Of a stretch of DNA of 64,000 nt, positions 4,672 to 39,618 are shown one piece after another. The translations under genes and the position numbers were made by a program. The notes under the pieces were generated by a model. That model had not been told where the DNA came from. It was given only the letters and a program-made list of their open reading frames with translations, and did not search any database. This DNA is from an uncultured Alphaproteobacteria bacterium (lineage in GTDB: Bacteria > Pseudomonadota > Alphaproteobacteria > Rhizobiales > Xanthobacteraceae): positions 137,087-201,086 of the forward strand of contig CAVZWE010000020.1 of NCBI GenBank assembly GCA_963778925.1, written 5' to 3'. Numbering within the stretch: position 1 is the stretch's first letter; each line of letters opens with the position of its first letter.

Positions 4672-6634
4672 TCAGTTCGGCTTCGCGTCCCCGACCGCCG
4701 CCGGCGCACTCGCAGGCGCCGCCGCATCCGGCGCCGCCGCCTTCTGCCCGCCGCCGGTAAACCGCTCCAGCACCGAGCGCAACTGGTCGCGCGTCTTGCG
4801 GTCTTTCACCGCGTCGAGCAAAGGCGCGGAGGCCGGCGAGCGGCGGATCAGGCTTTCCGGATCGGGGAAGATCAGGGGATCGTCCCACGGGCCCTGCACC
4901 ACGAAGGGCAGGTCGAAGCCGGGCGTGGTGTTCGGCGCCGAGACCAGGCTGGCGATGCCCTTCATGTCGTATTCGCGCGCAGGCACCGAAGCGGTGCCGG
5001 TCAGGGTCAGGCGCGCCGCCGGGCCTTCGACGCGGATGTCCTCGGCGGTGGCGATGCCGTCGGCGAATTTCATCGAAATGGTGAGGTTGTCATAGGGCGT
5101 CGAGCCGGAGCGGAAATTGCCGGCGCCCGACAGCGGCCGGCGCTCCAGCCGCTTCAGAAGCTGCTCGGCGTTGAAGCCGGCAATCGCGCCGTCATGGCCG
5201 GTCAGGGTCGCGGTGCCGTCGAGCGAGGATGCCAGCCCGAACGGGCTCGAGCCGGAGGCCACCAGCGAGACGTTGAGGTTGCCGCGGCCGGACAGCTTTG
5301 GTCACGCCGAACAATTCGCTGGCACAGGCCTGCAGGTCGACGTCGGTGAACTGGAACTGTGCTTTCACATCGGCGACCGCGTCCGAGCGCGCGACGCCGA
5401 ACGAGCCCTTGGCGATGCCGCCATAGATCTGCGCCTCGCCGATGGACAGCGCCAGCGCGCCGCCGCGCAAATTGGCGCCCAAGGCCGTGCGGCCGAGTTT
5501 CGAGGAGCCGACGGTCAGCTTCGCCGCCGACAGCCGCATGTCGAGGTCGGTGGTCGACAGCGCGTTGAGGTCGAACAACTGCCGGTTCCAGTCGCGCGCG
5601 CCGCTGGCGAGCAGGCGGAAGGTGGAGATATAGGGGGTGAAGTCGAGCGCGTCGGCGGCCAGCGTCGCCTGCAGCGTCTGGCGGCCGTTATTGGCGTAGG
5701 TCATCACGCCCTCGGCGACATTGCCGTCGAGCTCGACATTGACATTGGTGAGCGCGATCGAGGGGCCGACCACATTGGCGCGCGCCTTCAGCGCGAAGCG
5801 GCCGAAGCCGCCGGCGCCCGGCGGCGCCTGGCCGGCCCAGCGCAGCGCGTTGCGCAAGGACGGGCTGTCGATGGTCAGCGTGCCCTCCATCATCGCGCTG
5901 GTGCGGTTGGCGACCGCGCCGTCGAACGCCAGTTTTAGCGGCGCGCTGGCGAGCCGCGCCTTGACCCCGGAGCGATCGCCGGACAGCGCCGCAAGAAAGT
6001 CGCTGGCCGAGATCGAGCCGTCGACGCGCTCGCCGCGCCAGTCGAACTGGCCCGTGGCGGCAAAGGAGCGCGAGATCGAGGGCCAGGCCAGCGACAGGTC
6101 GATGTCGTCGAGGTTTTCGGAGACGTGACTGGCGGCGTCCTCGTAAGCGAGCACGCCGTCCTGGATCCGGATTTCCGAGAACGACACCTGATTGTCGGCG
6201 CCGGGCTTCATCGCGCGCGCGATGGTCTGGATGAACGGCGCCCAGTTGCTGCCGCCATCGGCATCCCTGACGATGCGGATATGCGGCCGCAGCATCATGA
6301 CGTCGGAGATCTCGAACCGGTGCAGCAACAGCGGCAGCAGCCGCAAATTCGCGGTCATCACGTCGACCGAGAGCGCGGGGTCGGCGGTCGCTCCGCCCTT
6401 CAGCCCGACGTCATGAAACGAGACGTAGCTTGCGGGAAACACCGAGACCTCGATTGGGCCCTTGACCAGGAGGTCGAGGCCGGTGACGGCGCGGATCTGT
6501 GCTTCCACCGCGTCGCGCAGCGCGTCCCGGTTGAGAAACCATGAGGTCGCGACCAGGCCGACCAGCGCCAGGCCGAGCAGCGCCGCAACCGGCGTCCCCA
6601 GGCGCTTCATTCCTTGGGCCATCGTCAATGACAT
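4672..6634 (-). pseudogene. asmA: AsmA family protein, split by a +1 frameshift at 5297-5299 (real or sequencing error)
   Basis: Two consecutive AsmA ORF pieces; removing one T of TTT restores GVTKLSGRGNLNVSLVASG; span is 3n+1. Confidence 0.8.
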
Positions 6635-17164: not shown

Positions 17165-17221
17165 TTGCTTATCTCCTCGCATGCCCCATTTTTCTGATTA
17201 ATATGCCGCGCCAAGCTATCT

Positions 17222-17235
17222 TTGATGTAAGTCAA
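17222..17235. promoter_or_regulatory. FixK/FNR box TTGATGTAAGTCAA
   Basis: TTGA-N6-TCAA, 58 nt upstream of the 17164 start. Confidence 0.6.
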
Positions 17236-17290
17236 CATCAAACCCAAGAGTAATCCTCGGTCTGACCGGACTTCACCTAAGAAGTTACGG

Positions 17291-17409
17291 AGGTCCGAAA
17301 TGGGTCAAACTCAGACCTCGGGGCGTATCTGAGGTAGGTCCGTTCGTCCCCCAACAACAGACATGAGGCGACTGCGGCAGCATGTCCGAAAGGTGCCAAA
17401 CGCAGACAT
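17291..17409 (+). repeat. Tripartite GTCCG repeat, complete A-B-C copy
   Basis: AGGTCCGAAATGGGTCAAACTCAGACCT (17291), AGGTCCGTTCGTCCCCCAACAACAGACAT (17336), ATGTCCGAAAGGTGCCAAACGCAGACAT (17382); spacing 45/46 nt. Confidence 0.7.
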
Positions 17410-17517
17410 CCCAACTCGCGGAACAATGATCGCCCTTCATGCACGGCTTTATCAGAAATCCCGGAGCGACCTCATTCCGTTGCTCGTGATTTGCTTACCA
17501 AACCTGGTCAGCGCCGA

Positions 17518-18369
17518 TCATGGCTTGGCAGGTGGGACAGCGCTTTCGGGCATCGGCATCTGCATATCCGAGGGCATAACCATGCTGCTGCCCCTCGGGA
17601 ATGTGGGAAGGAATCGGGGTGCCGCGATCACCACCACACCATAAACGACGAGAGCGGCCGCCGTCGCGCGAGCCGCCACGCGACCCCAAGGCAATGTTTT
17701 CTCCGCGAATATGACGAGCGTGATAACCGCCATGGCAGCGATATTCATGATGCCGAGTGGGAACAGGATGACGAACAGGAGCCAGCAACAGCCAAGGCAA
17801 TAGCCCCCGTGGAGCAATCCCATGCGCAACGCGCCCGCAGCACCGTCGCGCCACGATGTCATGATGAAGGTGATGGGCGTGCGGCACTTCGAAAGGCACA
17901 AGTCCTTCAAGGGTGTAAGCTGGTAGAGGCCCGCCGCGACGAGCACTATTCCGCCGACGCGGGCCGCGGTGGTCGGCGATAGCGCGGCACGCGCAGCAAC
18001 CGCCTCGGCGGCGAGCGCGCCGGCATAGGCTGCAACTCCCGACAGCCCCCACACCAAAAGGTATGTCACCGCGAATATCCAGGTTGAGACGAACGCTTCG
18101 CCGCGCTGTCGCTTGCCCGCCTGCACTTTATGGAAGGTGAGGATCATGGGCGCGGCAGTCGGAAACATCATGGCCACCATCATGATGACCCAGACCGCCA
18201 GGAACAGCGGCGCGCGCAGGCCCATGGTCGGCGAGTCCATCGCCATATCCATATCGGTGCCTGCGGCTTGCCAGACGAGCACCGCCCAAGCCGCTGCTGC
18301 GAGCGCCAGCAGCAAGCCCAAGATGACGTTACGTTGAAACGCGATCGGGCCCGTCTGGGTGCCGTCCAT
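17518..18369 (-). CDS. DUF2182 family metal-binding integral membrane protein
   Basis: WVIMMVAMMFP, YQLTPLKDLCLSKCR, GGYCLGCCWLL. Confidence 0.85.
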   Translation of the reverse strand: MDGTQTGPIAFQRNVILGLLLALAAAAWAVLVWQAAGTDMDMAMDSPTMGLRAPLFLAVWVIMMVAMMFPTAAPMILTFHKVQAGKRQRGEAFVSTWIFAVTYLLVWGLSGVAAYAGALAAEAVAARAALSPTTAARVGGIVLVAAGLYQLTPLKDLCLSKCRTPITFIMTSWRDGAAGALRMGLLHGGYCLGCCWLLFVILFPLGIMNIAAMAVITLVIFAEKTLPWGRVAARATAAALVVYGVVVIAAPRFLPTFPRGSSMVMPSDMQMPMPESAVPPAKP

Positions 18370-19059: not shown

Positions 19060-19289
19060 CTGCTCCTCCTCCTATAACGGAAAACACGAATGATTTTAAA
19101 GACGCGCCGCAAATGCTCCCTCACTTGAATTCAATTTCCGGCTGGTCATCGCCAAGCGAGCCGTCTCTTGTCTACGCCCTAGGCGAGAATTTAGCATAAA
19201 TTCTTGAATGCCGAACAGCCGAATTGAGGCCAGTGTCACGCATCTTATCAAGTGGGTCTCCCCGCACTCATTCAATGTCTGAGATGGGT

Positions 19290-20008
19290 GTGCGCCGTGC
19301 AAAGGCGGCGCTTTCCAGTGGGTGCAAGCCCCACCCGGCAACCGCTCCAGCCGGAAGCAATCGGAGCAGTCATGGAGGTAACGAAGTGGCTGAAGCCTTC
19401 GATTAGCGTGTCACAAATTGGTGACAGCGCGAGTGTGCAGGCCGCAACGCGAGTGAACGCCGAGCAATCCTCGAAAAGGACAATGCGCAGGTCGACCCGA
19501 CAACCCTATCGGGGAAGACTGATACGTCTGGATGAAATGAGCGAAGCGATACGTTCAGACGCTGCGCCGGGGTAGTGGCGGCGGCATGTACACAAGGAAA
19601 GCGCACGAAACACGGGAAGCCCCAAGGCGTGGTCAGCGATGACCAACCGGAAGCCCGTGAGGGACAGGCTGGGCGCCCTGGGGTGGCGGAGAGGTTCGTA
19701 GTACCGCGGAAGCCGGGTAACTCCGGTGGAGGGAAGGGACCTCAGTTCAAGACCGACGCAATACGTGGTGAAGGACCTGGAGATTGGGCAACCTATCAAC
19801 TCCAATAAATGTTCAGAAGCCGCAGATGGCGTTGCACGCGAAAGCGTGAAGTCTTGTCCGAGAGCCGGATGCGGGAAATCTGCCTGTCCGGTTCGATGAG
19901 CGGGATGTGGAAACGGAGCCATGGCCGAACCAGTAAGGCACCGCCAGACGAAAGAGGCGGCAACAGATATGTTCTACCTAAAGCCACCGCGCCACATCTC
20001 AACTCTAC
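19290..20008 (+). mobile_element. ORF-less group II intron (719 nt; RT/maturase ORF deleted)
   Basis: 5' GTGCG; domain V GAGCCGGATGCGGGAAATCTGCCTGTCCGGTTC (19862-19894); long domain VI ending CTCAACTCTAC; only a 21-codon ORF stub [21 protein letters not shown] (19784-19849). Confidence 0.85.
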
Positions 20009-39541: not shown

Positions 39542-39618
39542 GCAGTTGTAGCTCAGTTGGTTAGAGCGCCTGTCTGTGGAACAGGAGGTCGGTGGTTCGA
39601 GCCCACCCAACTGTACCA
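39542..39618 (+). tRNA. trnH: tRNA-His (GTG)
   Basis: Acceptor GCAGTTG/CAACTGT, anticodon arm CCTGT-CTGTGGA-ACAGG, T-loop GGTTCGA, encoded CCA. Confidence 0.95.

Follow-up and report, generated by a model that had tools for sequence, protein, structure and literature searches.

Introduction

Reviews describe ORF-less group II introns of bacteria as rare and immobile (PMC4424553). The one well-studied mobile exception belongs to a single thermophilic cyanobacterium, Thermosynechococcus elongatus, in which the ORF-less TeI3 introns share one common breakpoint and are mobilised in trans by related proteins (PMC2882425). RmInt1 of Sinorhizobium meliloti (class D/IIB3) is a rhizobial IIB-type intron whose RT/maturase has no endonuclease domain (PMC5894124, PMC4075523). 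A third point of comparison is provided by the B.c.I4-type introns of Bacillus cereus, which carry ~50-70 nt of extra RNA near the 3' end relative to a standard domain VI; this "domain VII" comes after domain VI and displaces the 3' splice site in the downstream direction (PMC4424553). Among mobile elements in general, MITEs are non-autonomous DNA transposons, short derivatives with internal deletions that are present alongside their autonomous parents or in greater numbers and receive the enzyme in trans. Such provision in trans has also been achieved by design, as laboratory delta-ORF versions of RmInt1 are mobilised by separately supplied protein.

Here, we describe an ORF-less group II intron found in a 64-kb stretch of DNA from an uncultured soil alphaproteobacterium (the whole stretch analyzed is referred to as the window, and coordinates are window positions on the plus strand unless a locus is named), together with its full-length siblings and its other ORF-less copies in genomes, soil metagenomes and soil metatranscriptomes.

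Results

Identity and boundaries of the intron

Positions 19290-20008 hold a 719-nt group II intron ribozyme without an RT gene, of the junction type designated J31, which its sequence identifies as a self-splicing-type ORF-less group II intron. Its extent was set by the ends of homology to sibling introns together with Rfam matches. The 5' terminus is GTGCG (19290-19294; GUGCG in the RNA, in keeping with GUGYG) and the 3' terminus reads ...CTAC with C20008 as last base, in keeping with a terminal AY. Full-length siblings in unrelated flanks start with GTGCG in nine of nine cases and end with CTCTAC in eight of nine; the ninth (L142) aligned only partially, with CTCTAC just past the aligned end. 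Homology between the window and other loci ceases at the intron ends in every locus compared. The closest copy noted, from Bradyrhizobium sp. AUGA SZCCT0283 (L016), is 98.6% identical and has different flanks. The first-pass annotation had pointed to the GUGCG start, a domain V with an AGC triad and an extended domain VI ending in AC, all of which are present in the sequence, and the intron features described are far beyond chance.

The neighbours of the intron are a DUF1326 gene on one side and a beta-lactamase-family gene on the other, and it is antisense to both. A promoter and terminator scan found no sigma-70-like promoter upstream of the intron and no terminator; the antisense position and the absence of a promoter match count against an active lineage. 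The GC skew of the window was too flat for replication orientation to be deduced, and searches of sequencing runs with unique window DNA turned up no run containing this genome, the word share being at most 0.25, as expected from the element alone. The window also contains a tRNA gene (39542-39615; Rfam RF00005, 71 bits), which is unrelated to the intron.

Deletion of the reverse transcriptase ORF

BLAST searches against plasmids identified full-length siblings of ~1.98 kb, of which the window copy lacks ~1.26 kb, corresponding to nearly all of the ltrA ORF. Full-length relatives occur in Microvirga, Paraburkholderia, Caballeronia, Sinorhizobium fredii, Sphingobium, Buttiauxella, Planctomyces and Bradyrhizobium, and the window aligns to full-length siblings over 19286-19846 and then over 19840-20008. 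What is left of the reading frame is a 21-codon RT/maturase remnant from TTG at 19784 to TGA at 19849, residues 1-21 of the protein of the full-length sibling L020 matching 19784-19846 by tblastn; remnants in ORF-less copies range from 21 to 23 codons. Both the ORF deletion and the 21-codon remnant had been called in the first-pass annotation and are borne out, as siblings carry the additional 1.26 kb and a sibling RT matches only these 21 residues of the window. The protein C-terminus it gave, AKA before the stop, was wrong, since the sibling protein ends in ...PWVKA.

In every full-length copy, the 5' side of the deletion reads ..GCGAAAGCGAAGGC/AGAAGCC.. and the 3' side ..GTGAAGGC/GTGA.., and GAAGGC or a near copy of it is found at both deletion ends in all full-length siblings, even the distant ones of Buttiauxella and Planctomyces. 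The J37 junction (..GCGAAAGCGAAGGCGTGA..), carried for example by a Bradyrhizobium sp. Ash2021 plasmid copy, equals the recombination product of the two GAAGGC direct repeats, while the J31 junction of the window (..GCGAAAGCGTGA..) equals J37 minus one 6-nt unit of the imperfect tandem GCGAAA/GCGAAG. Over 138 loci, 118 junctions were J31, 18 were J37 and two were other types (slippage variants). The J31 junction forms a hairpin, CACGC-GAAA-GCGUG (19835-19848; helix 32), which is invariant in 30 copies and has the joint within GCG at 19844-19846. An earlier proposal had the two ORF ends joined through the microhomology GCGAAAGCG; as repeat recombination to J37 was followed by a 6-nt loss, this is close and yet inexact, with only GCG shared at the final joint and the primary deletion lying between the GAAGGC repeats.

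These junctions suggest an ancestral IIB-type intron of 1.98 kb, encoding a protein without an endonuclease domain, in which the two 6-nt GAAGGC repeats recombined and removed ~1.26 kb of the RT/maturase ORF from domain IV. Slippage may then have taken out one 6-nt unit, giving the tight CACGC-GAAA-GCGUG hairpin. The exon-binding sites and the six ribozyme domains are all retained in the shortened RNA. The Novosphingobium resinovorum plasmid NZ_CP128493 (H42) carries a copy in which another, partial deletion affects the ORF.

Ribozyme domains and fold

An RNAalifold consensus placed domain I at 19290-19617, where Rfam RF02003 (group-II-D1D4-4) matches 19316-19452 from end to end of the model (99.9 bits, E 4e-21) and 36 of 102 pairs show compensatory changes among 47 sequences. 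Domains II (19618-19686; 9 of 23 pairs compensatory), III (19687-19747) and IV (19748-19860) come from the same consensus, with domain IV containing the ORF remnant at the location of the siblings' ORF. Domain V (19862-19894; AGC triad 19863-19865) was defined by alignment to RF00029, and all of its 14 pairs are formed in every one of 30 ORF-less copies. At a relaxed threshold, RF00029 matches the window from 19860 with 38.9 bits, 1.1 short of the gathering score of 40, and scores 42.8 and 40.1 bits on the siblings L020 and L010, where the whole extended domain VI is aligned and the match ends at the last intron base; in L020, it covers the equivalent 151 nt. The Rfam comparison proposed in the first-pass annotation agrees with its call, and the six-domain fold, domains I-IV included, is supported by covariation.

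Domain VI is extended to 108 nt (19898-20005) in both the minimum free energy (MFE) and the consensus folds. Its basal helix is formed by GAG-C-GGGAUGUGG (19898-19910) pairing with CCACAUCUC-(G)-CUC (19992-20005), followed by UAC, the 3' strand of the window copy reading CCACAUCUC-A-A20002-CUC. In both folds, the predicted branch A20002 forms a bulge, flanked in the consensus by 3 bp on its lower and 10 bp on its upper side; as UAC follows CUC, this would place the branch A 7 nt from the 3' end, which is the canonical geometry. Compensatory changes are present in 12 of 32 domain VI pairs. The Rfam alignment of the window ends domain VI at 19934, which we regard as a local misfit, as sibling homology, MFE and consensus folds and RF00029 on the siblings all give 20008. 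Although B.c.I4-type introns likewise have ~50-70 nt of additional RNA near the 3' end, a domain VII of that kind was rejected for the window intron: the extra ~75 nt are located inside the domain VI helix, and the sibling-defined end lies 7 nt after the branch A.

Across 47 sequences, 70 of the 224 pairs of the six-domain fold are compensatory. Among 30 ORF-less copies, 98.5% of cells are standard pairs over 221 pairs and 17 pairs are changed on both sides. Shuffles give 8.3 +/- 1.6 such pairs, with none of 500 reaching 17, and slid controls give no more than 6, with 37-40% pairing; these values are to be read with the structure having been derived from the same family, and some of the variation may stem from recombination with full-length lineages. 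The fold is conserved after ORF loss. In the window copy, 4 of ~224 consensus pairs are non-canonical, three of which are common to other copies, and nine substitutions are private or rare. One of these, G20001A, breaks the C-G pair 19901/20001 adjoining the branch A; an intact full-length intron (L151) carries the same base at this position. The predicted exon pairings of the window copy are intact, and the copy may still be active.

Target recognition by exon-binding sites

A target logo built from 45 distinct 5' flanks reads (A/G)ATGTCCG at -16 to -9, GGGT at -4 to -1 and C at +1. At the window locus, the 5' exon provides a putative IBS2 (TGTCT, 19276-19280), recognized by its complementarity and the target logo, and IBS1 (GGGT, 19286-19289), and the 3' exon provides IBS3 (C20009, its first base). 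Their intron partners are EBS2 (GGACA, 19478-19482), the complement of the conserved TGTCC of the logo, EBS1 (ACCC, 19503-19506) within the hairpin CCCGA-CAACCCTA-TCGGG (19496-19513), and EBS3 (G19575). All three pairings expected of IIB-type exon recognition (EBS1-IBS1, EBS2-IBS2 and EBS3-IBS3) are therefore present.

Two of these pairings covary. Where the EBS1 loop reads GCCA, the 5' exon ends in TGGC, and over all readable copies the EBS1/IBS1 combinations were ACCC-GGGT in 39, GCCA-TGGC in 12 and stray in three, two copies of a third specificity lying beyond what the search pattern resolves. EBS3 covaries with the first base of the 3' exon, with G-C in 31 readable copies, U-A in eight, G-U in four and A-C in one. 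Covariation of this kind is expected of RNA-guided reverse splicing and is not expected under DNA transposition. The target would thus be chosen by pairing of EBS2, EBS1 and EBS3 with (A/G)ATGTCCG-N4-5-GGGT/C.

Hairpin-like motifs resembling unoccupied homing sites were observed in the window at 17290-17322 and 17379-17408 (GAGGTCCGAAATGGGT/CAAACTCAGACCTC and ATGTCCGAAAGGTGCCAAACGCAGACAT). The first is a near-consensus target ~2 kb from the intron, and its vacancy counts against activity. The intergenic stretch 17301-17398 recurs at 90% identity in another intron locus (L009), and many occupied sites elsewhere read ATGTCCG-N16-CGGACAT. No Rfam family matched the hairpin repeats at 17180-17520.

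Parent protein and RNA evidence

The parent protein of L020 (443 aa) contains only PF00078 (RVT_1) and PF08388 (GIIM), ends ~30 residues past the maturase domain and scores 349 bits against TIGR04416 (cut-off 300). It has no D/En endonuclease domain, a lack that is a feature of bacterial classes A, C, D, E and F. The domain V-VI region matches introns of Escherichia, Shigella and Enterobacter plasmids at 80-83%; E.c.I4 and S.f.I1 have been assigned to class A (PMC3552965). The RT family is very abundant, with 7810 proteins at E <= 1e-100. RmInt1 was not identified among the tblastn matches; in other rhizobial plasmids, the best of these are ~48% identical.

A search of the 64-kb window with the sibling RT (tblastn) found no RT beyond the 21-residue remnant, which counts against trans-mobilisation in this host. 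On a plasmid of Bradyrhizobium sp. Ash2021, L020 with its intact 443-aa RT is located 19 kb from the ORF-less copy L001, so a helper can co-reside with an ORF-less copy. We infer that a sibling protein does the mobilising: the RT/maturase of co-resident full-length siblings would act in trans in both splicing and reverse splicing into DNA.

Soil metatranscriptome contigs cross the J31 junction gap-free in X31, X32 and X34, while other contigs run into the ORF. The ORF-less form is thus present in RNA pools, with the caution that the contigs may include DNA carry-over. No lariat or circle joint of the ORF-less form was found among the metatranscriptome contigs. In one X31 contig, the 3' end of a relative (..CUCGACUCCAC) is joined head-to-tail to the 5' GUGCG, the sole joint of this type, which may reflect either a circular intron or two copies in tandem; this relative also has a shorter domain VI.

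Spread and descent of the ORF-less lineage

The ORF-less form was scanned for with the pattern ACGCGAAAGCG-N0-30-TGANGTCTTGTCCGAGAGCC, which full-length copies cannot match. It was found in 16 species genomes (Bradyrhizobium isolates and MAGs labelled Bradyrhizobium, uncultured Alphaproteobacteria or, in the case of three short contigs, other phyla) and in at least 120 soil metagenome contigs. Flanking sequences were distinct in 45 of 46 cases on the 5' side and 69 of 91 on the 3' side, and the flanks of the window copy are common to none of the other loci. The ORF-less lineage has apparently gone on to occupy dozens of new sites in Bradyrhizobium-like soil bacteria using the enzyme of full-length relatives. 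The first-pass proposal of a non-autonomous element mobilised in trans thereby gains support from the siblings and from more than 130 other copies, and we put the probability that these sequences represent a non-autonomous group II retroelement lineage mobilised in trans, with the window element as one copy, at roughly 80%.

The principal alternative is that the ORF was deleted repeatedly and in place, each ORF-less copy deriving from a resident full-length intron via the GAAGGC repeats and the ORF-less form itself being immobile. Recurrent deletion is made possible by the conserved repeats, since every full-length sibling has GAAGGC, or a sequence close to it, at each deletion end. In a tree of the ribozymes, J37 copies are interleaved with the full-length introns L020, L151 and L153, the J37 copies L059 and L089 grouping there, and slippage variants occur in the junction region. 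Conserved repeats and J37 interleaving together imply that some ORF-less copies may have arisen by in-place deletion rather than transposition. As an account of the family as a whole, however, recurrent deletion appears unlikely, since the 118 of 138 junctions that are J31 would each need a second event. Furthermore, none of 17 sampled full-length copies falls in the J31 core clade, whose six diagnostic substitutions (19361T, 19402A, 19527T, 19583G, 19608A and 19809A) are missing from the 14 close ones. J31 copies whose backbones are almost identical (up to 98.6-100% across long stretches) also occupy different sites in different species, which speaks against this reading.

The movement of the ORF-less form in trans is also consistent with how target specificity varies within J31. 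Outside the EBS1 region, the copies L063, L080 and L109 share 96-100% identity with the window copy; within it, identity drops to 68-81% and they carry EBS1 GCCA. They also carry EBS3 U and occupy three different TGGC/A sites. Full-length GCCA introns exist (L148, L149 and L152). Most simply, recombination would have swapped the cassette, after which the ORF-less form would have moved again.

A considerably weaker contender, to which we assign a very low probability, is a dead relic: the window copy, or else the ORF-less family in its entirety, would neither splice nor move and would simply be decaying. The absence of an RT from the window, the nine private or rare changes with one adjoining the branch A, the vacant target-like site 2 kb away, the lack of a promoter match and the truncated or internally deleted derivatives L024 and L035 (both 433 nt) and L015 would all fit decay. 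For the family, this is opposed by the occupation of at least 45 distinct sites, the EBS-IBS covariation, RNA contigs across the junction, and pairing kept at 98.5% with compensatory changes in excess; for the window copy, it is opposed by intact exon pairings and by only 4 of ~224 pairs being non-canonical, three of them shared. Finally, carriage at the DNA level in place of reverse splicing, whether by a transposase or within a larger repeat, can be dismissed as highly improbable: several 3' flanks do form small similarity groups, many targets lie within hairpin-like repeats and IS110-family elements are associated with some copies, but homology between copies stops exactly at GTGCG and CTCTAC, likeness of flanks is confined to the short motif pairing with EBS1, EBS2 and EBS3, and flanks change complementarily when EBS1 or EBS3 differ, which DNA transposition does not predict.

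Several rearranged loci were observed during the survey. Degenerate derivatives with internal deletions or truncations include L058 in addition to the three named above. One metagenome contig (L119) carries two GCCA-type ORF-less copies in inverted orientation, at 11-731 on the minus strand and 5468-6177 on the plus strand. Twintrons were also found. In L017 (1969-3855), domain V of an ORF-less copy is interrupted by a full-length group II intron of another kind (Rfam D1D4-6 type, 499-aa RT). In Bradyrhizobium erythrophlei GAS478 (L010, 1868-2781) and in L078, the ORF-less element contains at its position 450 a second ORF-less group II intron of ~915 nt (RF02003, 51 bits), so that both partners lack an ORF. 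At L008 (4555-5571) and L079 (5108-6271), and also at L009, L147 and L152, the intron 3' end is altered and has an IS110-family transposase gene (PF01548 and PF02371) next to it. The altered end reads CGACT/TATATGAGG..., with the same break 4 nt before the intron end in ORF-less and full-length copies, which suggests an IS targeting domain VI of the intron.

Discussion

The J31 and J37 copies resemble the TeI3 introns in sharing a deletion breakpoint with ORF remnants, in occupying many sites with good EBS/IBS pairing, in having diverged EBS specificities and twintrons, and in having full-length relatives that could supply protein. They differ in that the parent protein has no endonuclease domain, whereas TeI4 proteins have D/En domains, and in that the host is a mesophilic soil alphaproteobacterium. 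The J31 lineage extends over many species and metagenomes, whereas TeI3 is represented by 17 copies in one genome, and the change of specificity here resembles a swapped EBS1 cassette. Mobility in trans has been proven for TeI3 and is predicted from sequence for the J31 lineage.

RmInt1 is likewise rhizobial, of the IIB type and served by an RT/maturase without an endonuclease domain. Its ORF-less form is man-made, in contrast to the natural and abundant J31 form, and it targets ISRm2011-2 rather than an intergenic hairpin-like motif. MITEs offer a parallel in kind, as short, internally deleted derivatives depending on an enzyme in trans; the J31 element nevertheless differs from them in being RNA-mediated, in choosing its target by base pairing and in having neither terminal inverted repeats nor target-site duplication. 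A bolder version of the preferred reading, which we hold tentatively and at somewhat less than even odds, is that J31 is a successful MITE-like non-autonomous intron whose spread takes in many Bradyrhizobium-like species of soils around the world, changing specificity by swapping EBS1/EBS3 cassettes through recombination with other intron lineages and owing its success to the junction hairpin that compacts domain IV.

If this MITE-like reading is true, it would contradict the textbook view of ORF-less bacterial introns as rare and immobile. A literature search found no description of the J31/J37 ORF-less intron family. The J31 lineage would be a second natural case of a mobile ORF-less intron, from a different, endonuclease-minus branch and abundant across species, soil metagenomes and metatranscriptomes. 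It would offer a natural system for studying how degenerate introns are served by a "driver" protein, which has been proposed as a step on the way to a common splicing machinery, as well as target-specificity change and the minimal size of a mobile ribozyme. As a 719-nt RNA with a known helper protein, it could also become a compact gene-targeting scaffold for rhizobia.
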